Virus genome (UHGV): UHGV-0390448
Reading direction: 5' to 3' (one strand)
DNA: 64,000 nucleotides
Origin: a virus
Shown: positions 9,128-63,999 of the stretch, piece after piece
Layout: every line of letters begins with the position of its first letter
Numbering within the stretch: the first letter of the stretch is position 1
Notes under the pieces: model-generated
The model's input: the letters and a program-made list of their open reading frames with translations, nothing else
What the model was told of the DNA's origin: nothing
Databases searched by the model: none
Program-made: the position numbers and the translations under genes

Positions 9128-10075
9128 TTAATAATGGTTAGCCATCCATTCAGATCTAATTGATGGGATAAACTCTCTATTGAGAAATGGGGCGTACAGC
9201 GTGGTAGTCACGTCTGCACCCTCCTTAGCGTTTTTGCAGCGTTGTGGCGGTAGGATCAGGCGGCTTGTGCCTCGTTCAATAGCCATTTTTAAGCCGTGGC
9301 GAAGGTCTTTCTGCATGAGCTGAATGCGAGCTACCAGAGGGGTAAACTCGGTTTCCAGTGCCATGTTTTCAATGATATCGAATCGTCTGTTTGCAGCTTG
9401 TGTGAAGTCTTCTGGATCGTCGTTCAGAGATGTACACAAGGCCAACTCAGCTATGCGGAGACGAGCAACCTCAGCACTGTACTCTGGAGTTTTCATATCA
9501 GGCAAAGTGGCGCGCATACGCTCAAGCAATTCAGCGCCTTTCCCTGTTAGTGGTTTAAGCGTCCACTCGGTTGGTACTCCGTTTATAGGGACCATAGTTT
9601 TAATAAACGGCGGGACTGTCAGGATTTCTACCGTTTCGGCAAGGTCTGAAAGGTTAATATCTGCGTGATGAACGTTTCCACAGTGACCACACTCGTATGA
9701 GTAAGTCATTACGGCATCTGGTCTGGAATTGACAAAGATCCACCAAAGCGCGGTTCTGCGATCCTGAACTGTCCAGTTTGAGCTGTCGTTAATTTCGCCA
9801 TCTTGCATGGCGTTGAGGTATTCTGTTGTGGTTGCCTCGTCTTCTGCCGGATTGATGTCTGAATATTTCAGGGCATCTTTCACAGTAGGTGCATGAAACT
9901 GAATTTCTATTTCAGGCTGTGAAGGTAATGGGAATTTGGGAATGTTCAAGGATTCCTCCAGAAAAGTCGGTACTCGTTTGGCTGGAGGATAGGGAGTGTG
10001 TGATTTTGACTTTAACCTATTTATCCACAGGGTAGATCCAATAAATAGATCCCAAAGAGAACCAGTAAGATCCAA
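9128..10075 (-). CDS. Hypothetical protein (possible tail assembly protein by position)
   Basis: 315-aa ORF directly upstream of the tape measure gene; its 5-prime end overlaps the DnaA-box/GATC part of the replication origin. Confidence 0.45.
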   Translation of the reverse strand: MDLTGSLWDLFIGSTLWINRLKSKSHTPYPPAKRVPTFLEESLNIPKFPLPSQPEIEIQFHAPTVKDALKYSDINPAEDEATTTEYLNAMQDGEINDSSNWTVQDRRTALWWIFVNSRPDAVMTYSYECGHCGNVHHADINLSDLAETVEILTVPPFIKTMVPINGVPTEWTLKPLTGKGAELLERMRATLPDMKTPEYSAEVARLRIAELALCTSLNDDPEDFTQAANRRFDIIENMALETEFTPLVARIQLMQKDLRHGLKMAIERGTSRLILPPQRCKNAKEGADVTTTLYAPFLNREFIPSIRSEWMANHY

Positions 10076-10234
10076 AGAAGATCCCGGATCGCTGCGAGCC
10101 GCGCCATCACTGGCCTAAATGGAGATCAACATTGACTATGTGCGATTTAATGTTGACTATGTGCGATTTAATGTTGACTGTACGCGATTTAATGTTGACT
10201 ATATGCGATATAAACATTGACTGTATGCGATAAT
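10022..10234. promoter_or_regulatory. Plasmid replication origin: DnaA box, five GATC sites (four in AGATCC context), five ~21-bp direct iterons
   Basis: Perfect DnaA box TTATCCACA at 10022-10030; GATC at 10036, 10049, 10069, 10081, 10088; five tandem iterons (consensus aatgttgactatgtgcgattt) at 10131-10234, immediately upstream of repA. Confidence 0.8.
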
Positions 10235-10311: not shown

Positions 10312-11196
10312 ATGGTAGATGACAAAAAAGGCTTTCTGAACGTTGAGGAAATATCAGGGAATACCGGAGAAATCCACAGCTTAAAGCCTAACAATAATAG
10401 CACTATTCAGCCGATAGCTTTGTTGCGGCTTGGGGTGTTTGTTCCCACATTGAAATCTACCAGTGTTGCTTTACGTCGCAAGAACGCCGGTTTAACTAAC
10501 TCCACTGATGCGACAGAAGAACTGTCCAGCCTGAAGATTGTAGAGCAGGAAGGGTATCAGGGTATTGAGATTCATGGGCCACGGCTGGATATGGATACTG
10601 ATTTTAAGGTGTGGATAGGCATTACATCTGCATTGTTTGACTATAAACCAGATAATGATGGTGTGATCACCCTGACATTCTCTGAATTTGTGGATCGTTG
10701 CGGTTATCCAAGGAAGCGGCTGTCCAAGGCTTTTCGCAAGAGCATTGGCGACTCTCTAACGCGTATTCAGCAGACGTTGCTGAAGTTCAACTTGCCCACC
10801 AGCAAAGAACATGTTCGTTATATCCAGATGAATTTATTGGCATTTAGTGAACTTGATACTGAAAATGACATTATAAGAATCCAACCGCAGAAGCAGTTGT
10901 CTGAGTTGTATTACGTTGACTATAAGCGAATATTGAAGCTCAAAATGCTCGATAAACTTGGCAGGAAAGAGACAGCCAAGGTGCTTTATACGTTTTTCGA
11001 AGCGTTACCTTCAAACCCTGCGCCAGTGAGTATTGAGCGCCTTCGCGCCAGATTGAACCTCAAATCATCGGTTAGCGTTCAGAACAGTGTGATTCGTAAA
11101 GCCATGAAAGACTTGGAAGCTGTTGAATATCTTAAATTTTCAGAGATAAAGAATGGTCGGAAAATAGGTTTCCAGATCCATAAACGAAATCCATAA
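10312..11196 (+). CDS. repA: Iteron-binding plasmid replication initiator RepA
   Basis: 294-aa ORF flanked upstream and downstream by iterons; sequence (QPIALLRLGVFVP, MDTDFKVW) resembles the RepA family of P1/RepFIB replicons as I recall it. Confidence 0.8.
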   Translation: MVDDKKGFLNVEEISGNTGEIHSLKPNNNSTIQPIALLRLGVFVPTLKSTSVALRRKNAGLTNSTDATEELSSLKIVEQEGYQGIEIHGPRLDMDTDFKVWIGITSALFDYKPDNDGVITLTFSEFVDRCGYPRKRLSKAFRKSIGDSLTRIQQTLLKFNLPTSKEHVRYIQMNLLAFSELDTENDIIRIQPQKQLSELYYVDYKRILKLKMLDKLGRKETAKVLYTFFEALPSNPAPVSIERLRARLNLKSSVSVQNSVIRKAMKDLEAVEYLKFSEIKNGRKIGFQIHKRNP

Positions 11197-18939: not shown

Positions 18940-19024
18940 ATAGCATTAGAAAAATAATTTTCGTTAACAATCTTGTGTTAGTATGGTTTAATCTTAATTT
19001 TCTAACATAAAACATTAGAACAAT
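18940..19024. promoter_or_regulatory. Cluster of three operator-like sites (TGTTAGAAAA family) in a divergent promoter region
   Basis: cattagaaaaat at 18943-18954, attttctaacat at 18997-19008 (inverted), cattagaaca at 19013-19022; immediately upstream of the ORF at 19023. Confidence 0.6.
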
Positions 19025-23516: not shown

Positions 23517-24158
23517 ATGATTATATTGGTAGTCAGCCAAAAAGGTGGCTGTGGAAAATCAACCACAAGCGTAAACATCTGTGCGGAGCTTGCCCGCGAA
23601 AATAAGGATGTAGTGTTACTAGATGCAGACAAGCAAGGAACAGCTGCCCGCTGGGCAGCTGACCGTAACACGGCAGAGGTTTCTCCTGTAATTCATTGTG
23701 TCCAGAAGTTTGGTAATATTCGAGAAACACTTCTCGATCTGGATAAGCGTTATGAATTTGTAGTTGTTGATACAGCCGGGCGCGATAGCAAAGAGATGCG
23801 TACAGGCATAACCGCTGCAGATATTGTGTTGGTCCCATTCAGACCATCTCAACCAGATTTAGACACGCTGGCACACTTTGTTGAAGTGTTTGAAGAGGCT
23901 TTGGACCTGATGCCTAATCCTAGCATTAAGGCGTTCGCAGTCTTAACAATGGCCCCATCCAATCCGGTTGTGAATGAAACCAATGAGGCCAAAGAGTACC
24001 TAGCTGAATATCCGCAACTGAAGTTGCTGAAAACCATCATTCGTGATCGTAAGGTTTACCGCGATTGCATGGCTGAAGGGAAGGGCGTTGTTGAGATGGA
24101 CAACGGGAAAGCTAAAGGTGAAATCCAGATGTTGGTTAAGGAGTTATTAAGTGATTAA
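23517..24158 (+). CDS. Small ParA-family partition ATPase (ParF-like)
   Basis: 213 aa with deviant Walker A KGGCGKST near the N-terminus. Confidence 0.8.
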   Translation: MIILVVSQKGGCGKSTTSVNICAELARENKDVVLLDADKQGTAARWAADRNTAEVSPVIHCVQKFGNIRETLLDLDKRYEFVVVDTAGRDSKEMRTGITAADIVLVPFRPSQPDLDTLAHFVEVFEEALDLMPNPSIKAFAVLTMAPSNPVVNETNEAKEYLAEYPQLKLLKTIIRDRKVYRDCMAEGKGVVEMDNGKAKGEIQMLVKELLSD

Positions 24159-24438
24159 GCCTCGTAAATCGGTAAAAGCCCCCGAAGTAAAAGACCCCGA
24201 TCTTGAACGCCGAATTGAGGATTTTGCCAGTAAGGCTGATTTGGTGCCGGGTGAGCAACCAGAAGACAACAAAGTGCTCGATAAGGACGCCCCACGTGAT
24301 TTTAAATCCATTCGTGTTGGCTTCAATGAATACGAGTACCAGGTACTTGATGCGTTAAGCAAAAAGCATAATCGCAGCAAATTGAATATGATCCGCCATG
24401 CTATTCTCATGCTTGCAGAGTCTGAGGATACAAAATGA
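24151..24438 (+). CDS. ParG-like ribbon-helix-helix partition protein
   Basis: 95-aa ORF overlapping the ParA stop; disordered N-terminus and C-terminal RHH-like segment (NMIRHAILMLAE). Confidence 0.55.
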   Translation: MIKPRKSVKAPEVKDPDLERRIEDFASKADLVPGEQPEDNKVLDKDAPRDFKSIRVGFNEYEYQVLDALSKKHNRSKLNMIRHAILMLAESEDTK

Positions 24439-24444
24439 CGCCGG

Positions 24445-24550
24445 AATAACACCGTTTTGGTTCCATGTGTTATTTTGAAGCTATTTTGATGCCTTTTTAG
24501 TACCAGAATGGTGTTATTAGTGTACCGTAACGGTGCTTGTTTGATGTTAT
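24445..24550. repeat. Second copy cluster of the GTACCAAAACGGTGTT-family repeats downstream of the ParA/ParG-type operon
   Basis: aacaccgttttggttcc (inverted), agtaccagaatggtgtt and gtaccgtaacggtgctt. Confidence 0.5.
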
Positions 24551-24551
24551 A

Positions 24552-24575
24552 AAAGCCCCATATGGGGCTTTTCTT
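24552..24575. terminator. Bidirectional terminator between the ParG-like gene and dmt
   Basis: aaaagcccca-ta-tggggctttt: stem flanked by A-tract on one side and T-tract on the other. Confidence 0.7.
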
Positions 24576-26988
24576 AATTAAGCGTGGCTATAATGTCGTT
24601 AGCTATCATTCGCGTTGATGCTTTACAGGATACAGAGCGACGGGATGGCATAGGATACACCTTGAAGCCATTGCCAACGTAAAGTTCGCGAATGTTAGGC
24701 GCTCCACTGTTTGTTATCACAATTTTCGCCCCGCGTCTGTGAGCATCTACCAGCAGCGACACCAGCCGTTGTTGATCTTCAAACCTAAAGCTATGCCCTG
24801 AGTAATTTGTAAATCCGGTAGTGTCGGGCAATGGTTCATAGGGGGGATCGCAGAAAATCACATCATCATTCCCGGCAGCCTCAATTACACCAGCAAAATC
24901 GCCGGACACAAATTCCGAATACTTTGAAATATCGTCAGCCAGGAACGCCTCCATTTCCGCGAGAGGGAAGTAGGGAGATTTCTGCTTTCCATATCCGACG
25001 TTGAACTCTCCTTTACGGTTATAGCGAGTGACGCCATTAAAACAATGACGATTGAGATACAGGAACGCCGCTGCATGGTGAAGAGAATCATAAGCACCAT
25101 TGTTGAATGCATTGCGAACATTCAAAAATGCATCAGCAGAGTTGTAATCCTGAAAATAACGATATGCCAGTGTGATAAGAGAATACCCTTCACGCTGCAA
25201 TGTCTGATAGAAGTTAATCAGGTCACCGTTAATATCATTAAGCAGGTTGTGGCGAAAACCTGCATTCGTAAATACGGAACCGCCACCAACGAATGGTTCT
25301 ATTAACCGCTTGCCGTGTGGCAGATGCTCAAGCACTGTAGGCAACCCTGAGAATTTACCGCCTACCCATTTGAATATTGGGCGCTCATATTCATCCGGAG
25401 TCCGGAGTTTTCTAGTGTAGGTAATGGTATTTATTGTTTTTTGCTGTTTATCCGCCACGGTCGCAAGAATGCGACACCCAATCCATTGCATAACAGGAAC
25501 TGCCATGCTGTTGCCGATCGCTTTGTAACGCGGTCCGTCAGCTGCAAGCATCGCGGCCTCTTCTTCGCTTAAATCTGGATAGTGATTGCGCAGATATGCC
25601 AGTTCATCTGAATTAACTTTTTTACGCTTTTCCGTAGGGATCAACGTATGCCCATCAGGAAAACCTTGAAGTCTCTCACATTCGACAGGGGTAAGACGGC
25701 GGACAGCTACTTCTTCGTTTCTTACTTCATAGCAAACAGCAGTTGGATTTTGAGCCATTAGAGATGGTGAAGTATTCTTAGTTGCTGCATGTTGTGTACC
25801 ACTCATACGCTCAGGAAAAGCCAATGTAACAAGATGCCCATGGCTTTCTTGCTCACGCGCCCGCAATGTACCATGCCCTTCTGACCAAAAACCTGCTCCA
25901 GTGCTGCTAAAAACGGCAAGGTCAGTGGCATCTTTAAAGTCTCTTGCCTTTACTGTCGATGCGGTTTCATCGTCAATATATTCCCCAAATGCCGCCATCC
26001 TGAAACCGTTTACGGCTTTCGTCGATTTCATATCGGGGGACATGCCAGCGTGTAGGCATGGATTTAGGCTTTCGCCACTGATTGCAGCGCCATTTGCAGT
26101 AATGGCGGAAGCGATTTCCTTCTTTTTTCGGCTCGGCGCAATATTCCGGCGCACGCCTTCGAACTCAAAAAGTACCGTTGCGGGATCGAGGTCTGTTCGA
26201 GCACTTGCGACAACAAACACGCGTCGGCGTCGTTGTGCCACTCCGAAGTATTGGGCATCAAGGATTCTCCAGGCCACTTTTCGCTGCGGTCCATAAATAC
26301 AACCACACTGCGGCCACTTTGGAGCATGGCTACCGGTTTTGGCATCCCACCGCCAGAACGCGTTACTTTTTCGTGATTCAGGTCGATCACCAGGTTCGAA
26401 TGGCGCATTTTCTCCAGCCAATCCGGCAAGGAAACATCCGAATGCGTTATCTGCTGATGACAGGACTCCTGGGACATTTTCCCATACGATGACGGCTGGT
26501 TTGAGAAAGGACTCGGCCCGTTTGTCGTCAATTGCATTTGCAAGCTCCACATATTTTAAAGTTAGCGCGCCGCGCTCATCATCAAGCCCACCACGCAAGC
26601 CCGCGATACTGAATGCCTGACAAGGGGTTCCTCCGACGAGAACATCCGGGGCTTCAATTTTTCCAGCCCGGATCTTCTTAGCAAGTTTTGTCATGTCGCC
26701 AAGGTTGGTGACATGAGGCCAGTGGTGCGCAAGAACGGCAGACGGAAAAGGCTCGATTTCAGCAAACCAAGCCGGACGCATACCCAACGGTTCCCAGGCA
26801 ATGCTTGCGGCTTCAATTCCACTGCAAACCGAACCATATCGAAGATTAATGCTCTGCTTCACCGCCAATGGCCTCCACCAGCGAGCTAAACATCGCGGAT
26901 AATTCGCTTGTGAACAGAATGAAGTCAGCATCAAACCGCTGGGCAACATCTTCACGGTCGATGTCATCGTTCTGGTCATAGAGATCAT
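24574..26988 (-). CDS. dmt: Bifunctional DNA methyltransferase, N-terminal C5-cytosine (Dcm-like) fused to C-terminal N6-adenine (Dam-like) domain
   Basis: N-terminal part has CSGIEAASIAW (motif I-like) and GGTPCQAFSIAG (PCQ motif IV); C-terminal part has FVGGGSVF and DPPY. The true start is probably internal, since the ORF as drawn overlaps the upstream gene by about 140 nt. Confidence 0.8.
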   Translation of the reverse strand: MISMTRTMTSTVKMLPSGLMLTSFCSQANYPRCLARWWRPLAVKQSINLRYGSVCSGIEAASIAWEPLGMRPAWFAEIEPFPSAVLAHHWPHVTNLGDMTKLAKKIRAGKIEAPDVLVGGTPCQAFSIAGLRGGLDDERGALTLKYVELANAIDDKRAESFLKPAVIVWENVPGVLSSADNAFGCFLAGLAGENAPFEPGDRPESRKSNAFWRWDAKTGSHAPKWPQCGCIYGPQRKVAWRILDAQYFGVAQRRRRVFVVASARTDLDPATVLFEFEGVRRNIAPSRKKKEIASAITANGAAISGESLNPCLHAGMSPDMKSTKAVNGFRMAAFGEYIDDETASTVKARDFKDATDLAVFSSTGAGFWSEGHGTLRAREQESHGHLVTLAFPERMSGTQHAATKNTSPSLMAQNPTAVCYEVRNEEVAVRRLTPVECERLQGFPDGHTLIPTEKRKKVNSDELAYLRNHYPDLSEEEAAMLAADGPRYKAIGNSMAVPVMQWIGCRILATVADKQQKTINTITYTRKLRTPDEYERPIFKWVGGKFSGLPTVLEHLPHGKRLIEPFVGGGSVFTNAGFRHNLLNDINGDLINFYQTLQREGYSLITLAYRYFQDYNSADAFLNVRNAFNNGAYDSLHHAAAFLYLNRHCFNGVTRYNRKGEFNVGYGKQKSPYFPLAEMEAFLADDISKYSEFVSGDFAGVIEAAGNDDVIFCDPPYEPLPDTTGFTNYSGHSFRFEDQQRLVSLLVDAHRRGAKIVITNSGAPNIRELYVGNGFKVYPMPSRRSVSCKASTRMIANDIIATLN

Positions 26989-27751
26989 CGCAAAACGTCA
27001 GTGCTTTGATGCTCATGTCATCGTTTAACCTGAAGGTCGCGCGGTCCTGCCAGTTGATTGCAACTGTTGTTGCAACTTTTCCGGCTTCAATATGAGTCAT
27101 TATTTCCTCTGACTGTAGGTCTACTTTCTTGCAACGAACTGCGCCGCCGTCATCGAACAGAGATTTCAATATGGCTTCTTCGCCTGCTTTAAAGCCTTGA
27201 GGAAATGTTGACTTGAACCATTCGGTCATAGTCATTTCGAGCGGTTCTATCGGCGTGAATGGAATCACCGGAAGGCTGCCAAGTGATTTACGTAAGAGCG
27301 CCAGCATTTCTTCTGCTTTTCTGGCGCTGGAAGCTTCTACGAAGACCAGATAGTTGTCGCGATCAATAAGGATTCGCGACAATGATTTGCGAGTGAATGC
27401 GCGAGGCAACAAAGAGTGGAGAACTTCATCCTTCAGGGTGTTTTTTTCCGACTTCTTCAGCTTACGGGATTGCTCATTTTCGAGCTTTTCCACTTTTTTC
27501 TGCACTTCCTCCTTAATGACATGAGAGGGCAGGAGCTTAATTTCTCGCTGTTGCTGGAGAAGTAGAAAACCGTGGTATTCATGGATCAGGTTGTCAGCCA
27601 GAACCGGCACCCATCCGACTTTTGCCATTTCTTGTGATGCGCATGGAGTGAATGTGAATTGGCTTAAGGCATCACTAACGGTGGTTGAGTCCAGTTTAAT
27701 TTCGCGGGCAAGGCGATAGACGTATATGTTTTTAAATGCGACCAATCTCAT
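26846..27751 (-). CDS. RdgC-like recombination-associated protein
   Basis: 301 aa; extensive collinear similarity to E. coli RdgC as recalled (FKN..VYRL, FTPC.SQ.MAK.GWVP, LKDEVLHSLLPRAF, LRKSLGSLPV, DREDVAQRFDADFIL). Confidence 0.75.
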   Translation of the reverse strand: MRLVAFKNIYVYRLAREIKLDSTTVSDALSQFTFTPCASQEMAKVGWVPVLADNLIHEYHGFLLLQQQREIKLLPSHVIKEEVQKKVEKLENEQSRKLKKSEKNTLKDEVLHSLLPRAFTRKSLSRILIDRDNYLVFVEASSARKAEEMLALLRKSLGSLPVIPFTPIEPLEMTMTEWFKSTFPQGFKAGEEAILKSLFDDGGAVRCKKVDLQSEEIMTHIEAGKVATTVAINWQDRATFRLNDDMSIKALTFCDDLYDQNDDIDREDVAQRFDADFILFTSELSAMFSSLVEAIGGEAEH

Positions 27752-27752
27752 A

Positions 27753-27795
27753 TTTCGTAAAACTGTGTTAGAAAATAAAACTCAATTATCTAACA
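27753..27795. promoter_or_regulatory. Operator palindrome upstream of the rdgC-like/dmt operon
   Basis: Perfect 13-bp inverted repeat aaactgtgttaga ... tctaacacagttt separated by 17 bp, each arm carrying the TGTTAGA core. Confidence 0.6.
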
Positions 27796-27810
27796 CAGTT
27801 TTGTGTTTTG

Positions 27811-28488
27811 CTATCCCTTCACAAAGGAGAAATTGCTCGCTGTTGCTTTTAGCGCGCCACCAGCGTTCAGGGCTATATCACCATCAGCGGCGACGGTTAC
27901 ATTGCTGCCTTTTACATTAACGTCTCCATCGGAGGATACATTGGTTTTGCTGCTTGATTTGACGTTAACCTCACCTCCAGCATTAAGCACTATATTCGCC
28001 GGGCCGATTATGTAAATCTGGCCGGATTCGTTCATCCCTATCCTTGATCCTGCGGCGGTGTTTGCTATTTCATAGCCACCGCCAGCCGTTCTGACCTCAA
28101 GGATATTGTTTCGGTGAATAACAAAATCTTCAGTCGCCGAAAACTGGGGGCGGGCAGGAGCACCATCAACTTCTTCTGGCGACCATCCGTTTCCTTGTCC
28201 GGAGGCTTCCGGAGGCACATTTGGTACGCCTCCTGGGGCATCCTGCGCCGCGCCAACGATTAAAGGTCGGCGCGTGTCTATCCTGCCTTTAGCATCCAGA
28301 TAAGGAAATTCGACCCAGACTAAATCGCCGCTGACTGTAGGTGTAAAGGCGTTACCGATAGGCATTTGATACTCTGCCCATGGGAGGTCTTCATCCGGTA
28401 CACCGTTCCAGTCAGGCAGTATGCGGACCTGCGCTCGCATAAGTCCGGCAGGGTGTTTGGTCCCTACGATTTGCGCTCTGCGTTTCAC
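27811..28488 (-). CDS. Baseplate hub/spike protein (gpV/gp45-like)
   Basis: 225 aa; N-terminal OB-like segment followed by repetitive beta-helix-like C-terminus (NAGGEVNVKSSSKTNVSSDGDVNVKGSNVTVAADGDIALNAGG). Confidence 0.5.
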   Translation of the reverse strand: MKRRAQIVGTKHPAGLMRAQVRILPDWNGVPDEDLPWAEYQMPIGNAFTPTVSGDLVWVEFPYLDAKGRIDTRRPLIVGAAQDAPGGVPNVPPEASGQGNGWSPEEVDGAPARPQFSATEDFVIHRNNILEVRTAGGGYEIANTAAGSRIGMNESGQIYIIGPANIVLNAGGEVNVKSSSKTNVSSDGDVNVKGSNVTVAADGDIALNAGGALKATASNFSFVKG

Positions 28489-29465
28489 TGGTTGGGTACT
28501 CCTAATATCATTCGTGTTGTATAGCCGATCCGGTCTTCAAAATGGGCTACGTTTTTCACCAGCAGCTTACGAGGCAACGATTCGTCCAGCTTATTTTCCT
28601 GGTCGTAACGATACACGAGGATCTCAATAACCATTCCCGGCGTGATGTCGGGATTACCCGCGACCTCAATATCCATTTTGGGTACGAGCGACAATTGCAT
28701 ATTGCGCAGAGTTTCCATATCCGGATCGGATATATAGCGTATTGGAAGTGAGCTATCGCCATATTCGACATAGCCTTCAGTCATTGAATAGCCGGTAAAT
28801 CGATACTGAGTATTTGCCGTAACGGCATACTCTTGCTGTATAAGCCTCATTTTTGAAATCGTGTATTCTGCCCTGGGGTTGTTCCCTTCATAGGTGAATG
28901 ATGATTTAGCTTTCATAAGGTCAGCTAATGTATAAAAGTTAAACTGACCACGGCAGGCCCAGCATAAAGCGCCTTTGTCGCGGGCCATTTCAGATAGCAT
29001 TTTGGAGGGTTTTTCCCCGGCGGAAAGATGGTACGTACAGCTTCGTTTCAATGCGCTGGAGGAAACTTTCAGTGTACCGGTATACGTCTTGAAAATGGTA
29101 TCAGGCGTTTTGTTTGTATGCAGGTTAGCCCGTAGAGCGGGGATCTTAAATATCCGAACGTCTTCACTGACTGCAATGACCGTAATGACATCACCAGCCA
29201 GCACCGCAGATGTTACGAAAAAAGTTGTTTTAAACGTGCCTGAATTGCCTTGTGGATCACCCATCTCTGCAACCAGTGCTGCGCCGTATTTTGTTTTCCA
29301 GTCATCAATTATGGTGCCGGTAATATCGTGAATTTCCAGTTTCAGCAATGGTGCACGCAGGTTTGCCTTTTCCACATATACGGCAGTGAATATCCACTCC
29401 CTGGGCACTTTGTTTCCGTTGATGGTAACGGACTGTAGAAAGTATTGCTGTAGCTCCTGGGACAT
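28485..29465 (-). CDS. Putative baseplate protein
   Basis: 326-aa ORF co-directional with and overlapping the spike gene. Confidence 0.4.
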   Translation of the reverse strand: MSQELQQYFLQSVTINGNKVPREWIFTAVYVEKANLRAPLLKLEIHDITGTIIDDWKTKYGAALVAEMGDPQGNSGTFKTTFFVTSAVLAGDVITVIAVSEDVRIFKIPALRANLHTNKTPDTIFKTYTGTLKVSSSALKRSCTYHLSAGEKPSKMLSEMARDKGALCWACRGQFNFYTLADLMKAKSSFTYEGNNPRAEYTISKMRLIQQEYAVTANTQYRFTGYSMTEGYVEYGDSSLPIRYISDPDMETLRNMQLSLVPKMDIEVAGNPDITPGMVIEILVYRYDQENKLDESLPRKLLVKNVAHFEDRIGYTTRMILGVPNQ

Positions 29466-39415: not shown

Positions 39416-39449
39416 TGTGTTAGAAAATCAAAATTGATTTTCTAACACA
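39416..39449. promoter_or_regulatory. Perfect 34-bp palindromic double operator
   Basis: tgtgttagaaaatcaa-aa-ttgattttctaacaca, 2 nt upstream of the ref-like start and about 170 nt upstream of the divergent plus-strand genes. Confidence 0.7.
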
Positions 39450-44255: not shown

Positions 44256-44288
44256 GATGTTAGAATATTGATTTTAATTTTCTAACAG
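44256..44288. promoter_or_regulatory. Inverted pair of operator-like sites
   Basis: gatgttagaatattgattttaattttctaacag upstream of the ORF at 44330. Confidence 0.55.
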
Positions 44289-44329
44289 ATTATTTTACCG
44301 CTCGGAACAAAACAGAGTCGGTATACATT

Positions 44330-59194: not shown

Positions 59195-59297
59195 ACATTT
59201 TCTAATAGGAACAATCAAAAAAAAGCGGTTTTATCCTTTACTCACCTTGTTATTCAGCATAAATTTGTCACAGGACTTTTATGTTAGAAAACTAAAT
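59195..59297. promoter_or_regulatory. Two operator-like sites upstream of the 59310 ORF
   Basis: acattttctaatagg (59195-59209, inverted) and ttatgttagaaaactaaat (59279-59297). Confidence 0.55.
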
Positions 59298-59309: not shown

Positions 59310-60347
59310 ATGAGTAAGAAGTCGATCGAGAATGAGTACAAACGGTTCCTGCAAACCGCTGAACGGTGGAAAGAGCTGGTGGTCGCAAACTCTGTTTTCC
59401 ATGATACCAGTTACGTTGGCGAGGAATTTCGCCATGTTGCATTAACACATGATCCGGCTGTATTAGAAGAAGCTGAAAAATGCATAGCCGAATGGAAAGC
59501 CTTTGTTGATCTGTGTCGCAAGGATGATGACAAAGCCTCAAACATTGTTGAGTCGGTTTATTTACCGATCCCATTCATTGTTGAGGATACTAATCAGAGT
59601 ACGCATATCGTTATGCAAAGCGCAACCACAACGAGAACATTTACGCGCGAAGACCTGCTGAAAAAATACGATAAAACTATAAAGAAAAGCATGAAAAACA
59701 GGATCTTTTCACAGGTTGTCGGTGCGCTTGAAGAAGAACGCAGATTCTTCGCCGCAGAACGTGAGGGCGAGGTATACCGCGCAAGAAAAGAAGGTTATAC
59801 CGATGTGGTGATTACCACCAATATCGAGGGCAACAATGGACTTTCACGCTTCAGAGTGGGTACGCACGGTGCGCTGATCTTTGCAAAAAAAGCAAACACA
59901 GAGATTCCCGTTGTTAACAACGTTGGTGAGCGCCGCACCCTTACCATTTACACTGGCATTAAACCGCTTCCGTGCGGACTTCTCGGCGAATTTGACCTTT
60001 ATCGGGTTCGTGACCTGGAAAAGCAGCAGCCAAGCTATGTCGTGAAGTCATATATCCTGAGAAACATTGATATCCGCAATCAGAGTTTAAAAAACAAATC
60101 AGAGAAAATGCTGTCCGAAGCCGATCCAGCCATACACCAGATCGTTAGCCGGAAAATTCAAGAAGCTAAAGATGCAATGGCAAGGCTGGATAAAATGGAC
60201 CTGGAACTACTGGAAGTTATGATTGCCTCCGGCGATGACCTGACAGGCATCCGCCTTACTGAAGCCAGGAAAAAATACGGTAAAAGCGTTGAAGAACGCT
60301 ATGGGTACACATTCACACAAACGATGTACGCGGCAAAACTCTGGTAA
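59310..60347 (+). CDS. Hypothetical protein in the position of the immunity repressor (between lox-like site and pacB)
   Basis: 345 aa from ATG 59310 (RBS AGTAGGA); operator-like sites in its 5-prime region. I could not recognise similarity to P1 C1, so the repressor assignment is positional only. Confidence 0.4.
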   Translation: MSKKSIENEYKRFLQTAERWKELVVANSVFHDTSYVGEEFRHVALTHDPAVLEEAEKCIAEWKAFVDLCRKDDDKASNIVESVYLPIPFIVEDTNQSTHIVMQSATTTRTFTREDLLKKYDKTIKKSMKNRIFSQVVGALEEERRFFAAEREGEVYRARKEGYTDVVITTNIEGNNGLSRFRVGTHGALIFAKKANTEIPVVNNVGERRTLTIYTGIKPLPCGLLGEFDLYRVRDLEKQQPSYVVKSYILRNIDIRNQSLKNKSEKMLSEADPAIHQIVSRKIQEAKDAMARLDKMDLELLEVMIASGDDLTGIRLTEARKKYGKSVEERYGYTFTQTMYAAKLW

Positions 60348-60386: not shown

Positions 60387-61893
60387 AAATGTCAATATCA
60401 GGAATATCCACTTCTGCCAACACCTGATCGCGGAATGTTGCTAGTTCTGCGCCAATGTCTTCATTAGCAGGCACGTAATCCACCAGCATAGTGAAGCAGT
60501 AGGTATCCCATCTGTCCGGCGACTTGATGTTTAACTTCTGCCGCATGTGCTCCTTGCGCATCATCGCCACCTTCCCTTCTTCGTTAAGCATATACGGGAT
60601 TTTTGATGCCTGATCGGCAGTTTTGGGGTCACTATCGATACGCATACGCCCTGATTTAATGGCATCCCCTGCCATAATATTGGCGTAAGCACGCTGATTG
60701 ACAAAGCGTTCTCTGTCTCTTAGCGCAAACATAGGTTTACCCCAACGGATGCGAACGGGATTAGCACCACGGCGGACAAGCTGCGCACACGTATCTGAAC
60801 CAAAGCCATCAGCATCCACAGCAATGGTGATGTTCGGGTATTTATCAGGAGTGCATTCGTTATAGATAAAGTCGGCAAAAGCCAACGGGTCCATAGTGCC
60901 TGGCATCTCCAGTATCTTAAAGTTCACAACACGTCGTTTCTCACGATAACCGGATACTTTGCATATATTGAGCACCGATTTGTCGCGACCATTACCGACG
61001 TCAGCGGTCGCTACCCAGCCCCAATCTTTCTCCAGCAACACTTTACGCCGTGCGGCGCGGTCGCACTCATCACGACCAAGCAAATACCCGTTAATTGCAC
61101 GCGGGAACTGGCCCAGCACCTTAACCATGTACTCCAGCGAATCCCTGCCGCCGTACTCCAGCAATTTCTCACGAATAAAGCTCGGTTCAACGAATGGAGA
61201 TTCTTCAGAGTTAAGGACTATTGCCGTCCAGACTCCTTCCGGATTGCCTTCTGCCTTTGCCCTTGAATGGTGGGATTCATAAAAGTAACCGCTTGGACGC
61301 GTAGGCTGGGAAAGCATGAGCATACGGTTATCTTTCTGCGTTAACGCCCCCGTCATGACGTTAATCGCCTTATCTGATATGCCCGATGCTTCATCAAGGA
61401 TTAGCAGTAAATGCTCCGCGTGCTCCCCCGCCAGTGCCTCTTCGTTACCGAGTCGATAACCTTTACAGAGCACTTCCCATATCCCTTTACGGGAACGCTC
61501 ATAAAACATGGTGTCAGACAGGACAAAATAGGTCTGTAACCAGCCGTGGCGCTTAACAGCATTCGCCCAAAACTGTTTCACGTATTTGAATACGCCTGTT
61601 TTTACCTGGCCTATTTTGTTCGCAACAATAATGACGCGGGCGTCGGGGAACAGGATCATAAAAATTAGTAGCAACATCGCGGTAAGGGACGACTTACCCG
61701 TTCCGTGTCCGGACGTAACGGTCGTCCTGCTCCCCGTCTCCTGCACTGACTGAATGATCTGCTGCTGCTGGTGGGAGGGGAACATCCCAAAAATATCGAC
61801 AACCGCCTGGGTAAAGTTGTATCGATACCTGATAACCATATCGCGCCAACGTGGATCACTGGTGACGCACTTAATCTTACGACCACCAGCCAT
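60385..61893 (-). CDS. pacB: Terminase large subunit (PacB-like)
   Basis: 502 aa; N-terminal ATPase with Walker A-like SGHGTGKSS and Walker B LLLILDEA, C-terminal RNaseH-like nuclease region with conserved acidic residues; start overlaps the upstream stop (TAATG). Confidence 0.8.
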   Translation of the reverse strand: MAGGRKIKCVTSDPRWRDMVIRYRYNFTQAVVDIFGMFPSHQQQQIIQSVQETGSRTTVTSGHGTGKSSLTAMLLLIFMILFPDARVIIVANKIGQVKTGVFKYVKQFWANAVKRHGWLQTYFVLSDTMFYERSRKGIWEVLCKGYRLGNEEALAGEHAEHLLLILDEASGISDKAINVMTGALTQKDNRMLMLSQPTRPSGYFYESHHSRAKAEGNPEGVWTAIVLNSEESPFVEPSFIREKLLEYGGRDSLEYMVKVLGQFPRAINGYLLGRDECDRAARRKVLLEKDWGWVATADVGNGRDKSVLNICKVSGYREKRRVVNFKILEMPGTMDPLAFADFIYNECTPDKYPNITIAVDADGFGSDTCAQLVRRGANPVRIRWGKPMFALRDRERFVNQRAYANIMAGDAIKSGRMRIDSDPKTADQASKIPYMLNEEGKVAMMRKEHMRQKLNIKSPDRWDTYCFTMLVDYVPANEDIGAELATFRDQVLAEVDIPDIDI

Positions 61894-63257
61894 TAGTCAT
61901 CCTCCGGCTGGTCTATCGCAATCTCGTCATCTACAGCATCAAAACCGGTATCCCCCGCGTCATAATCACCGTAGATATCAGCCGTGGCGGAAGGGTCTAT
62001 ATTCAGGTCTTCATCATTGGCCTCAAATTCACCGGCTTTACGTTCTCCGTTCCGGTCGTAATCCCCCATCCCAAGCCTATCAACGATTTTCGCTACTTCA
62101 GCCCGGCGTTGTGCAAGCCATTGTGGGAGTCCAGCTTGTTGCTCGGCAAACTGCTTCGCCTCTTTATCCAGTTGCTCATCATCAACATCGTTAACGTCAG
62201 AAACCGGAGGCTCCAGAAGTGAGATCGCTTTTGCCGCTCGTGCCGCCAGGATAGCCGGGACACTGACGCCCTGCCGCTCGATATATTCAGCAACGCCTAT
62301 ATCGTCCAGCTCCTCGCGCTCACGCATACGTATAGCGGCGGCGATAACTCTGGCGGCGCGTGCGTCAGCGCCAATGCGATACTCAATCTCTTTGCCACGC
62401 TGCTCGGCTTGCAGGCGAGTAATCGCCAGTTTTTCTCTGGCCTCAGCCTCTCTGAATGCCTGCTGGCGCGCGCCCTGCGCAAGTTTTTCATCCCCCTGGC
62501 GTAGCTTCTGCTCGGTCTGGTAGATGGCAGCCAACCTACTGATAAAGTCATTCATGTAGTAGGCCGCATCGCTTATTAGGCCGAGAAGACGCTGCCCTGG
62601 GTGCATTCCCTCTGGCTGTGTATCGCCGAGGGCGTCAATCTCTTCCTGTAGTCGTTCCGCTTCCTGGTCAACGATGGCCTGATACTGAATTGCTCGTTCC
62701 TGCGCCATCTGTATCGCAAGTCGTAAATGTTCAGTCGCGCCGTTCTTCATCATCTCACGGGCGACGTTGGTGGCAGGCAAAGTGGCGCTTTGAGCTGATG
62801 AGTCAGGGATCATTTGCAATGATCCCTTGTTTCGTTGGGCTTTTTCGCTGCTTTTAGGGATCATTTCCCCCATTTCATCACAAAATGATCCCCTTACATC
62901 CTTGTGTATCTTATTGTTATTACTTGGCTTTTCTTTGTGATCCGCATTTTGTTTTTGCGGCATGGCGCGGAATCGTCCACCAGCTAACGATTTGTCAGTT
63001 TTTGTAAATTCTGTGCTTTTATCAGCCTTTTTTTGCTCTTTTTTTGGGCTTGTGGCGCTACTTTTTGCGCGCTGTTTTGTACTTTTCCCGGCAGCCTTAG
63101 CTTTCGCTTTAACCTCGTTTTTTTTCATATTGAGATGCTTTCTGGCGGTGTTAAAGCTGAGGTCATGCTGCTCGCAATATTCTTTTATGGTGATCCCGGT
63201 TTCTTCTCTTAACTCCAGGAACTTAGCTCGATGCGCTTCCCAGTTAATTAACGTCAT
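61893..63257 (-). CDS. pacA: Terminase small subunit-like protein (PacA-like) containing the candidate pac site
   Basis: 454 aa, N-terminal HTH-like region, immediately upstream of and translationally coupled to the large-subunit gene; GATC-heptamer cluster inside the coding sequence. Confidence 0.6.
   Translation of the reverse strand: MTLINWEAHRAKFLELREETGITIKEYCEQHDLSFNTARKHLNMKKNEVKAKAKAAGKSTKQRAKSSATSPKKEQKKADKSTEFTKTDKSLAGGRFRAMPQKQNADHKEKPSNNNKIHKDVRGSFCDEMGEMIPKSSEKAQRNKGSLQMIPDSSAQSATLPATNVAREMMKNGATEHLRLAIQMAQERAIQYQAIVDQEAERLQEEIDALGDTQPEGMHPGQRLLGLISDAAYYMNDFISRLAAIYQTEQKLRQGDEKLAQGARQQAFREAEAREKLAITRLQAEQRGKEIEYRIGADARAARVIAAAIRMREREELDDIGVAEYIERQGVSVPAILAARAAKAISLLEPPVSDVNDVDDEQLDKEAKQFAEQQAGLPQWLAQRRAEVAKIVDRLGMGDYDRNGERKAGEFEANDEDLNIDPSATADIYGDYDAGDTGFDAVDDEIAIDQPEDD
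62805..62946. other. Candidate pac site: five GATC sites in TGATCC(C)/GGGATCA heptamers as inverted pairs
   Basis: agggatcatt-tgc-aatgatccct (62805-62827), tagggatcattt ... aaatgatcccct (62855-62894), tgtgatccgc (62937-62946); analogous to the hexanucleotide/Dam-site architecture of the P1 pac site. Confidence 0.5.
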
Positions 63258-63721: not shown

Positions 63722-63740
63722 TGTATTAGAAAATTAATAT
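63722..63740. promoter_or_regulatory. Operator-like site upstream of the 63254-63646 / pacA / pacB operon
   Basis: tgtattagaaaattaatat. Confidence 0.5.
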
Positions 63741-63753
63741 TAACTTACTAACA

Positions 63754-63999
63754 CTACCAGCGGGATAAACGAACAACATGCTTAACTTTTGCCTCCCACT
63801 TCCCTTTATGTTTGTTGATCACCGCCTGCGCCATCTTCAGACTGGCTTCAAAATCGGCTTTTCGACCACTATTGCCCACCAGCAACGCTCCGTCTATTTC
63901 GGGTAAGCATAAGTAATCCTGCTCGACGGTAAGCGGCATTGATGATGTAACCTGGCAGGCTTTCCATCTGAAGCGTATGCGCACACTCCTGACTGACAT
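63754..63999 (-). CDS. Hypothetical ORF, possibly extending past the window end
   Basis: 81-aa ORF whose first in-window Met is at the window edge; cannot tell whether the true start lies beyond. Confidence 0.3.
   Translation of the reverse strand: MSVRSVRIRFRWKACQVTSSMPLTVEQDYLCLPEIDGALLVGNSGRKADFEASLKMAQAVINKHKGKWEAKVKHVVRLSRW

Follow-up and report, generated by a model that had tools for sequence, protein, structure and literature searches.

A P1 dmt-type methyltransferase gene in a putative D6/P1-like phage-plasmid, almost certainly translated from a GTG codon that overlaps its rdgC-like neighbor

Introduction

Which codon starts a methyltransferase gene whose reading frame is open well into the gene that precedes it? 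This question arose at a minus-strand locus in a 64,000-nt stretch of viral DNA (hereafter, the window), where a sequence-only reading had described a fused methyltransferase paired with an RdgC-like gene and had named two kinds of start, an overlapping upstream ATG or a non-ATG codon. Here, we analyze the start, the integrity and origin of both methyltransferase domains, and the signals surrounding the two genes.

Results

Layout of the locus

The locus consists of two overlapping genes:

27751..26846, minus strand: rdgC/hrdC-like gene, first of the pair, 301 aa (Pfam RdgC, E=1e-100; positional counterpart of P1 hrdC and D6_65)
24574..26862, minus strand: dmt-like gene with a GTG start, encoding a fused C5-cytosine and Dam-family methyltransferase of 762 aa (83% aa identity to P1 Dmt over its full length)
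24576-24574, minus strand: TAA stop codon of the dmt-like gene

In a profile search, the first product covered 293 of the 298 positions of PF04381 (337 bits), and its score against the RdgC equivalog model NF001462 (NCBIfam; 375.6 bits, cutoff 330) placed it in the RdgC family. The methyltransferase gene was located directly downstream and overlapped it, in agreement with the proposed pairing. Within the methyltransferase, a C5 domain (PF00145; aa 10-138 plus C-terminal motifs) was followed by a D12/Dam domain (PF02086; aa 499-737) in one continuous frame, confirming that a single C5-cytosine and N6-adenine fusion is encoded. The domain order had been read correctly as well but is not new, as both the order and the hrdC neighbor are those of P1 Dmt. 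The label "Dcm" holds loosely, for a C5 methyltransferase, but not for an ortholog of E. coli Dcm (CCWGG), since the C5 half scored 23.1 bits on PRK10458 against a cutoff of 710. NCBI already holds an identical 762-aa protein (P0001), and PGAP and other gene callers return the same product. The gene is of the well-known P1 dmt type, real but ordinary, and the locus is very probably the D6-lineage counterpart, on a D6/P1-like phage-plasmid, of the known P1 hrdC-dmt operon, with its fused methyltransferase read from GTG 26862. Antisense and alternative-frame ORFs also occur inside the methyltransferase gene (e.g., 26064-26552 and 25901-26296); annotated relatives have no gene on either frame.

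The start codon

Three features bear on initiation:

26863..26997, minus strand: open, non-coding run of the methyltransferase frame within rdgC that makes the start ambiguous
26860..26862, minus strand: GTG start codon of the methyltransferase, giving a 17-nt overlap with rdgC
26872..26876, minus strand: Shine-Dalgarno (SD) sequence GGAGG, 9 nt before the GTG and within rdgC codons (duplex energy; conserved in D6, pHX138, and the E. marmotae plasmid)

As the earlier reading had noticed, the methyltransferase frame continues into rdgC; it has no stop codon from 26997 to the terminal TAA, so that ~150 nt of rdgC are included, and its first ATG (26988) lies 143 nt inside that gene. Five ATGs (26988, 26979, 26967, 26949, and 26931) occur in this open frame, and a mechanical ORF call takes 26988. 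Initiation at one of them would add 23-42 aa, for a protein of up to 804 aa, and the extension would include MISMTRTMTSTVK. No in-frame ATG follows the rdgC stop before 26781 (Met28 of the 762-aa protein), and this one cannot be the start because it is downstream of motif I (GSVCSGIEAAS). ATG 26836 was rejected as out of frame.

The open stretch of ~45 codons in the alternative frame is not significant by itself, with (61/64)^45 ~ 0.12, and the corresponding frame is interrupted in relatives, by a stop one codon before the GTG of P1, five codons before that of pHX138, and 27 codons before that of D6; in RCS47 the frame ahead of the GTG is also closed by a stop. Substitutions in the stretch, tallied by rdgC codon position 1/2/3, numbered 2/2/20 relative to pHX138 and 4/1/15 relative to D6. 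Since rdgC third positions, which here are second positions of the methyltransferase frame, take most of the changes, selection acts on the rdgC frame only. Amino acid identity over the stretch was 40/42 in the rdgC frame vs. 22/42 in the methyltransferase frame.

The ribosome-binding signals pointed to the same codon. The anti-SD duplex energy was -9.3 kcal/mol at GTG 26862 compared to -0.1 to -2.4 kcal/mol at the five upstream ATGs, none of which has an SD sequence; among the start candidates, GTG 26862 alone has a strong one, besides a badly spaced TTG at 26868. The same GTG is annotated as the start in D6_64, the E. marmotae plasmid, and pHX138, and dmt of P1 and RCS47 likewise starts with a GTG overlapping the hrdC stop. 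In 262 of 269 family members, 15 or fewer residues precede motif I, and residue 7 of M.HhaI aligns with residue 2 of the query, such that family N-termini match the GTG start, whereas an extension of the kind encoded from the upstream ATGs is absent from homologs and from M.HhaI. An upstream ATG is thus effectively refuted by comparison, and we consider it extremely improbable. Of the two options originally named, the non-ATG codon stands and the overlapping ATG falls, given the stops in relatives and the selection confined to the rdgC frame.

TTG 26868, two codons before the GTG, would yield a 764-aa protein. It is in frame, is kept in D6, pHX138, and the E. marmotae plasmid, and would use the same GGAGG, but at a spacing of only 3 nt. 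P1 and RCS47 lack the codon and have a TAA one codon before the start, and no annotation uses TTG 26868, making it an unlikely initiator. These comparisons indicate that translation almost certainly begins at GTG 26862, for a predicted product of 762 aa.

Transcription and regulation

Two inverted repeats flank the gene pair:

24551..24572, minus strand: terminator-like hairpin, AAAAGCCCCAU/AUGGGGCUUUU, a perfect 11-nt inverted repeat beginning 2 nt past the stop codon
27759..27802, no strand assigned: palindrome with 18-nt arms and the core TGTGTTAGA-N16-TCTAACACA, stopping 7 nt short of the rdgC ATG on its upstream side (repeat count; fold energy)

The downstream hairpin had a folding energy of -14.7 kcal/mol (z = -3.1), and the palindrome, folded as a hairpin, -18.5 kcal/mol (z = -4.4). 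Five copies of the palindrome were counted in the window vs. ~0.1 in shuffles, the others lying upstream of ref-like and lpa-like genes, whose P1 equivalents are C1-controlled. The palindrome at 27759..27802 is accordingly a candidate D6-type repressor operator, a candidate RNA hairpin, or both. A C1-like protein is encoded in the window at 59310-60347. An Rfam scan of 24000-28600 gave only a sub-threshold match to a miRNA model, on the palindrome. No convincing sigma-70 promoter emerged from a consensus scan upstream of rdgC, so that transcription may instead read through from the baseplate operon.

As in the P1 hrdC-dmt operon, orthologs of hrdC and dmt are adjacent, on the same strand, and overlap stop to start. 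In P1 transcriptomics, the two genes acted as a single expression unit (bioRxiv 10.64898/2025.12.28.696737). In the window, rdgC and the methyltransferase gene are probably transcribed together from the minus strand, with the operator-like palindrome upstream and the hairpin as a putative terminator behind. The GGAGG in the last rdgC codons would serve GTG 26862, and the 17-nt overlap suggests translational coupling. The P1 Pdmt unit has uhr and a P1-type C1 operator/Pdmt upstream, whereas neither lies upstream of rdgC here: a baseplate gene directly precedes rdgC, with the different palindrome just ahead of the rdgC start, and no match to the P1 C1 operator (ATTGCTCTAATAAATTT) was found in the 64-kb window at ≤3 mismatches.

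A mosaic of P1 and D6

The window resembles P1 in being the same kind of element, with an oriR-like origin and a GATC-rich, pac-like site. Its methyltransferase shares with P1 Dmt (P1_gp069) the C5-then-Dam order and the GTG start over the end of an RdgC-family gene (hrdC, P1_gp068 in P1). However, this overlap is 17 nt in the window vs. 4 nt in P1, and the window's protein has three extra N-terminal residues. Although the C5 half, including its variable region, is 92-100% identical to P1 at the nucleotide level, identity drops to 51-77% in the Dam half, which belongs to the D6 type. The methyltransferase gene is thus mosaic, with its cytosine half of the P1 type and its Dam half of the D6 type.

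The orf65-orf64-orf63 cluster of D6 is likewise situated between the baseplate genes and the par region, and it shares with the window the rdgC 3' end, the SD, and the GTG start (MKQ as the first codons). In place of the PF00145 half, D6 has an unrelated 226-aa gene (a short putative cytosine methylase with no Pfam match), and it encodes its Dam in a gene of its own, which overlaps the preceding gene by ATGAGTAA, whereas Dam is fused in the window.

The cytosine half and its variable region

25453..26862, minus strand: C5-cytosine methyltransferase half, aa 1-470 (alignment to M.HhaI; TIGR00675)
25705..26127, minus strand: variable (target-recognition) cassette of the P1 type, aa 246-386, with four shuffled modules (a, b1, b2, and c)

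Motif-by-motif alignment to M.HhaI identified C5 motifs I, IV (PCQ), VI (ENV), VIII (QRRRR), IX (RRLTPVECERLQGFPD), and X (GNS) in order, with the motif IV Cys81 codon at 26622-26620. Scores of 128 bits (vs. 22) for PF00145 and 120.4 bits (cutoff 100.65) for TIGR00675 placed this half among C5 methyltransferases, and judged by its motifs, it is catalytically intact.

The variable region, which extends from motif VIII to motif IX and is 169 aa long in the window, is the single less usual feature of the locus. The cassette is 92-98% identical to P1 in nucleotide sequence but 38-59% identical to the E. marmotae plasmid gene, which elsewhere is 98-100% identical and has a d-e-f cassette. Among 245 family members, nine modules occur in 27 architectures, and modules b1, b2, and c of the window are each found without the others in other members. 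Tandem, independent modules of this kind, shuffled among relatives and swapped as a cassette relative to the E. marmotae plasmid, are also a feature of the multispecific C5 class (SPR/phi3T/rho11s/H2 type). The Bacillus phage enzymes M.SPRI, M.Rho11sI, and M.H2I are similarly phage-borne C5 methyltransferases with an enlarged VIII-IX region and with modules that differ between related phages. They differ in having longer variable regions (215-279 aa vs. 169 aa in the window) and in not being fused to Dam.

Searches for direct resemblance gave mixed results. An HMM of Bacillus phage TRD cores had no match in the window's P1-type variable region but had two tandem matches in the E. marmotae-type variant P0096 (0/300 shuffles). 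BLASTP of variable regions against SPR, rho11s, and H2 returned motif IX and weak alignments only, and a PDB sequence search with the variable region returned only a chance match to hyaluronidase (E=1.2). AlphaFold2 modeling of aa 1-480 from a 27-sequence alignment gave a core of moderate confidence and a pLDDT of ~23 for variable region 234-374. Counts of TL dipeptides by regex correlated only weakly with variable-region length (r = 0.30) and were set aside. A search of the literature for cytosine methylation or multispecificity of P1 Dmt found nothing, and to our knowledge cytosine methylation by this enzyme has never been demonstrated. We tentatively propose that the C5 half, both here and in other P1/D6-like phage-plasmids and a large family of related enzymes from enterobacterial prophages, may be a multispecific cytosine methyltransferase, the tandem, autonomous target-recognition modules of which (four in the window) would be shuffled between elements by recombination.

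The adenine half and the fusion

24586..25383, minus strand: Dam-family N6-adenine methyltransferase half of the D6 type, aa 494-759 (TIGR00571; E. coli Dam 2G1P; D6_63)

The second half scored 221.1 bits on TIGR00571 (cutoff 114.85) and matched PF02086 with E=2e-50, as expected of a Dam/D12 enzyme, and it contains DPPY at aa 672-675 (24838-24849) and the FxGxG motif as EPFVGGGS at aa 522-529. E. coli Dam (2G1P) matched over residues 5-266 (E=5e-52), but the half fell below the host-Dam equivalog cutoff (218 vs. 441 bits). Equivalents of E. coli Dam K9, N120, R124, and N126 are kept, whereas L122 is replaced by V and P134 by G, the latter also found in P1 Dmt. Identity to the free-standing Dam of D6 (D6_63) was 80% at the amino acid level. 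GATC methylation by P1 Dmt has been reported (PMC12707154) and is also stated in the note of the P1 record. The Dam half appears complete and most likely methylates GATC.

At the domain junction, there is no stop, no frameshift, and no in-frame ATG, and the 762-aa architecture is maintained in relatives with 84-98% nucleotide identity. The predicted product is thus one polypeptide of 762 aa and about 85 kDa. Two separate polypeptides could instead arise by internal initiation near Met455/Met461 or by proteolysis in the linker (aa 466-493), a segment with low conservation between P1 and D6 types; a free-standing Dam (301-305 aa) does exist at the same locus in D6 and pEC361_3, and there is a C5-only form of 473 aa with 93% identity (P0285). 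We nonetheless regard separate halves as improbable in view of the continuous frame and a Dam domain start with neither an in-frame ATG nor an SD obvious by eye. Additionally, fusions to either of two unrelated adenine-methyltransferase families (PF02086 and PF05869) are found repeatedly in the Enterobacterales, and this suggests that the fusion itself is selected.

Discussion

The two halves of the enzyme may serve different ends. Five GATCs adjoin the iterons and repA-like gene of the oriR-like origin (10035-10225), and five lie within the pacA-like gene (62808-62945), arranged as in P1 pac. These clusters suggest roles for Dam in replication and packaging besides anti-restriction. The cytosine half, in turn, probably shields phage DNA from cytosine-sensitive restriction enzymes, and evasion of host restriction by the methyltransferase, raised in the sequence-only reading, is plausible.

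Whether anti-restriction is the main role of the locus is another matter. Under that reading, pre-methylation of GATC and cytosine motifs would let incoming DNA escape type II restriction in the host, and we regard this as possible rather than probable. Near-identical elements carry exchanged variable-region cassettes, and across the family the modules occur reshuffled; restriction systems that select for diversity would be expected to leave such a pattern. On the other hand, host Dam already methylates GATC in E. coli, and in K-12 hosts McrBC and McrA act against DNA with heavy 5-methylcytosine, to which such modification would expose the phage. Bacillus phages use multi-TRD enzymes against restriction (PMC12707154, PMC8936443), but the sole documented role of P1 Dmt is Dam methylation of the pac site, which is required for pac cleavage (PMC12707154). 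By analogy with P1, Dam methylation in the window's element may license pac cleavage and support a GATC-dependent plasmid origin, rendering the element independent of host Dam. In a CRISPRi screen, hrdC and dmt were dispensable for lytic growth of P1 (PMC10695390).

For annotation, the correct product is the 762-aa protein initiated at the GTG and not the 804-aa ORF called mechanically, and the locus provides a worked example of how comparison resolves the start of an overlapping frame. We know of no multi-TRD, multispecific C5 architecture outside Bacillus phages. If the cytosine half is indeed multispecific, one polypeptide would combine several cytosine specificities with GATC, and this architecture would extend to Gram-negative phages. 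Classical P1, and with it hundreds of P1/D6-like plasmids associated with resistance, might then turn out to carry methyltransferases of this multispecific, anti-restriction kind.

The rdgC-dmt Gene Pair and Its Counterpart in P1

The window is part of a P1/D6-like phage-plasmid. It encodes ParM/StbA, ParA, baseplate and tail proteins, a pacA/pacB-like terminase and a repA-like product, and its C1-like repressor is 80% identical to D6_1. The gene pair under study was defined as follows:

27751..26846, minus strand: rdgC ORF, 301 aa, RdgC family (Pfam PF04381, E=1e-100)
26997 to TAA 24576-24574, minus strand: stop-free methyltransferase frame, PF00145 then PF02086

The RdgC protein also exceeded the cutoff of NCBIfam NF001462. 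In the methyltransferase frame a C5-cytosine methyltransferase domain (PF00145) precedes a D12/Dam domain (PF02086), and the continuity of that frame confirmed the sequence-only reading of one fused gene, C5 first and adenine domain second, beside an RdgC-like gene. The P1 counterpart of the pair is hrdC-dmt, whose 754-aa Dmt shares the C5-then-Dam order and is 83% identical to the window protein. Because P1 hrdC-dmt possesses them, the fusion, the domain order, the RdgC neighbor and the overlapping non-ATG start were already on record; the observation is real and was described correctly, and the gene arrangement is known.

Evidence That the Methyltransferase Starts at a GTG Codon

The first ATG of the methyltransferase frame (26988) lies 143 nt within rdgC, and the next in-frame ATG, at 26781, lies beyond the rdgC stop. 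The latter was ruled out as a start because it is downstream of motif I, in agreement with the earlier observation that the frame is open into rdgC and has no usable in-frame ATG past its stop. The start had been left as either an upstream ATG or a non-ATG codon. Six independent lines of evidence resolved this ambiguity in favor of the non-ATG codon, GTG 26862-26860, and an upstream ATG was rejected because none has a strong Shine-Dalgarno (SD), relatives have stops there, and substitutions follow the rdgC frame.

26876-26872, minus strand: SD sequence GGAGG, 9 nt upstream of GTG 26862

The anti-SD duplex energy was -9.3 kcal/mol at the GTG vs. -0.1 to -2.4 kcal/mol at all five upstream ATGs. 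Among relatives, stop codons close the methyltransferase frame ahead of the homologous start: a TAA at one codon's distance in P1 and RCS47, a TAG at five codons in pHX138.33gt_1 (pHX138) and a TAG at 27 codons in D6. Substitutions were counted over the 126 nt from ATG 26988 to the GTG; differences at rdgC codon positions 1/2/3 numbered 2/2/20 against pHX138 and 4/1/15 against D6, the favored third positions being second positions of the methyltransferase frame. Amino acid identity across this stretch was 40/42 in the rdgC frame vs. 22/42 in the methyltransferase frame. At the protein level, 262 of 269 family members have no more than 15 residues ahead of motif I, diverse homologs begin M-x(2-5)-TYGSVCSGIE, and residue 7 of M.HhaI aligned with residue 2 of the product that begins at the GTG. 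This GTG is also the annotated start in D6_64, pHX138 and pRHBSTW-00605_3, a plasmid of E. marmotae, and P1 dmt is annotated with a GTG start overlapping the hrdC stop (GTGA). Independent gene callers placed the start 17 nt ahead of the rdgC stop, and a 92,740-bp contig of E. coli at NCBI encodes an identical 762-aa protein (P0001). A small residual probability attaches to TTG 26868, which would use the same SD as the GTG but lies only 3 nt from that SD and is missing from P1.

The Two Enzyme Halves and Their Fusion

The C5 half scored above the TIGR00675 cutoff and has motifs I, IV (GTPCQAFS, catalytic Cys81), VI (ENV), VIII (QRRRR), IX and X. Its assignment as an E. coli Dcm ortholog was rejected by comparison with the PRK10458 profile. 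The Dam half aligned to residues 5-266 of E. coli Dam (2G1P, E=5e-52), and retains DPPY and FxGxG as well as the counterparts of K9, N120, R124 and N126. Split forms occur in relatives (protein P0285, and D6), so the halves might also be separated here by internal initiation or cleavage; the junction contains no stop, frameshift or in-frame ATG, and we regard such separation as very improbable in this element.

C5-family fusions to adenine methyltransferases recur across Enterobacterales with two unrelated partner families, PF02086 and PF05869, and this recurrence argues that the fusion is under selection. It apparently arose more than once. The PF05869 (phage N-6-adenine methyltransferase) partner was seen in the proteins P0272, P0275, P0277, P0281, P0288 and P0179, from Providencia and other genomes.

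Several variants were observed among the relatives. The dmt product of RCS47 (L004, 1615-4899) reaches 1095 aa through an intein (Hint_2 + LAGLIDADG_3) inserted near PCQ in its C5 half; its protein cluster, P0095, counts 3523 sequences, which makes the intein-bearing allele a common one. The 713-aa variant P0091 has an internal deletion of ~49 aa that removes motif IX together with the last part of the variable region; it is probably a C5-dead allele retaining the Dam half. In NCBI records P0021, P0050 and P0282 the methyltransferase is called a "multidrug DMT transporter permease," probably an annotation error spread from the gene symbol dmt.

Candidate Dam Substrates

The documented function of Dmt in P1 is to supply Dam methylation at the pac site, which is rich in GATC, and dmt is therefore needed in dam- hosts (PMC12707154); hrdC and dmt are dispensable in dam+ hosts (PMC10695390). 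Two GATC clusters were found in the window:

10035-10225: oriR-like plasmid origin, five repeats with GATC (AGATCC), the five GATCs within 60 bp, followed by five iterons
10312-11196: repA-like ORF (phrog_775)
62808-62945: pac-like cluster, five GATCs within 140 bp, inside the pacA-like ORF
61893-63257, minus strand: pacA-like terminase ORF

The iterons are direct repeats of about 21 bp (ATGTTGACTATGTGCGATTTA) followed by the repA-like gene, a layout equal to that of P1 oriR, where the P1 record annotates five Dam sites. In the pac-like cluster, four of the five GATCs lie in the 9-mer AATGATCCC in alternating orientation, an arrangement like that of the hexamers in the methylation-controlled P1 pac site. 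Taken with the role in P1, these clusters make packaging and control of replication the most likely functions of the Dam half. A second, plausible role is to protect the DNA from restriction, and this would fall mainly to the C5 half.

Ends of the Probable Operon and a Candidate Operator

24572-24551, minus strand: perfect hairpin AAAAGCCCCAU/AUGGGGCUUUU after the dmt-like stop (-14.7 kcal/mol, z = -3.1)
27759-27802: palindrome with 18-nt arms, core TGTGTTAGA-N16-TCTAACACA, ending seven nt upstream of the rdgC ATG

Five copies of the motif TGTGTTAGA-N16-TCTAACACA were counted in the window vs. about 0.1 in shuffles, and single half-sites lie ahead of the c1-like gene:

27764-27797: copy just upstream of rdgC
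39416-39449: copy just upstream of the ref-like gene
63722-63755: copy just upstream of the lpa-like gene
44256-44289: copy just upstream of the pdcB-like HNH gene
18974-19009: copy just upstream of a gene of unknown function
near 59195 and 59280: single half-sites
59310-60347: C1-like (D6-type) repressor gene

The P1 record annotates C1 operators for dmt and lpa, and ref and c1 are C1-controlled in P1. The P1 C1 operator consensus was not found in the 64-kb window; the half-site consensus matched its reverse complement at 10 of 17 positions. We infer that the palindrome probably serves as operator for the D6-type C1 repressor (gene at 59310-60347); rdgC-dmt would then be a repressor-controlled early unit like the P1 Pdmt operon. 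No convincing sigma-70 promoter was found upstream of rdgC by consensus scan. In the rdgC copy, D6, pHX138 and the window element show covariation at the outer positions of the stem, so the site may also act as an RNA hairpin, and the hairpin, ending 7 nt before the ATG, could influence rdgC translation. No recognizable SD precedes the rdgC ATG at 27751 (UUUUACGAAAUAUG; region 27745-27758); one NCBI assembly places the start two codons downstream at TTG 27745 (299 aa).

A Mosaic Gene with a Modular Variable Region

On nucleotide comparison, the window gene is a recombinant mosaic:

26772 to about 25513, variable region included: 92-100% identity to P1
linker and Dam half: 51-77% identity to P1
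all of the gene outside 26142-25693: 98-100% identity to the E. marmotae plasmid
26142-25693: 38-59% identity to the E. marmotae plasmid

Relative to the E. marmotae plasmid, 26142-25693 is a clean swap of one cassette, the 141-aa variable region. D6 and pEC361_3 differ in having an unrelated 206-226-aa gene at this position, followed by a free-standing Dam; a Pfam search with this gene gave no match. Annotated as a putative cytosine methylase, it replaces the PF00145 half (D6, L002, 3886-4566; pEC361_3, L006, 2585-3205) and contains PCT and ENP-like motifs. Its start GTG and SD are those of the window gene, which places the recombination joint just past the start codon.

The region between the motif VIII and IX anchors is 169 aa in the window protein; M.HhaI has about 95 aa there, and the multispecific Bacillus phage enzymes have 215-279 aa. 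Counted from where "GVRRNIAPSR" ends, about 27 aa past the motif VIII anchor, the variable region of close Dmt variants is 59, 97, 118, 141, 233 or 249 aa long. Nine modules defined from these variants form 27 distinct combinations among 245 family members, many of them 50%-identity cluster representatives. Of the pieces making up the window's region (a, b1, b2, c), b1, b2 and c were each found without the others elsewhere in the family (b1 alone, b2 alone, e-b2-f, b1-c, b1-f, e-c); module a was seen only within a-b1-b2-c. Every module has a T/S/C-L/V dipeptide recalling the "TL" motif of target recognition domains (TRDs), and the arrangement mirrors the tandem-TRD organization of M.SPRI, M.Rho11sI and M.H2I (PMC8936443, PMC12707154). 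An HMM of Bacillus TRD cores did not match the window's P1-type variable region; in the variant of E. marmotae type it matched two units in tandem (0/300 shuffles). AlphaFold2 gave a pLDDT of about 23 throughout the variable region, and PDB sequence searches with it returned no match. That the C5 half is multispecific is a reasoned possibility rather than a result, and we lean slightly against it. The start and fusion are in themselves ordinary; the modular variable region is the less ordinary feature.
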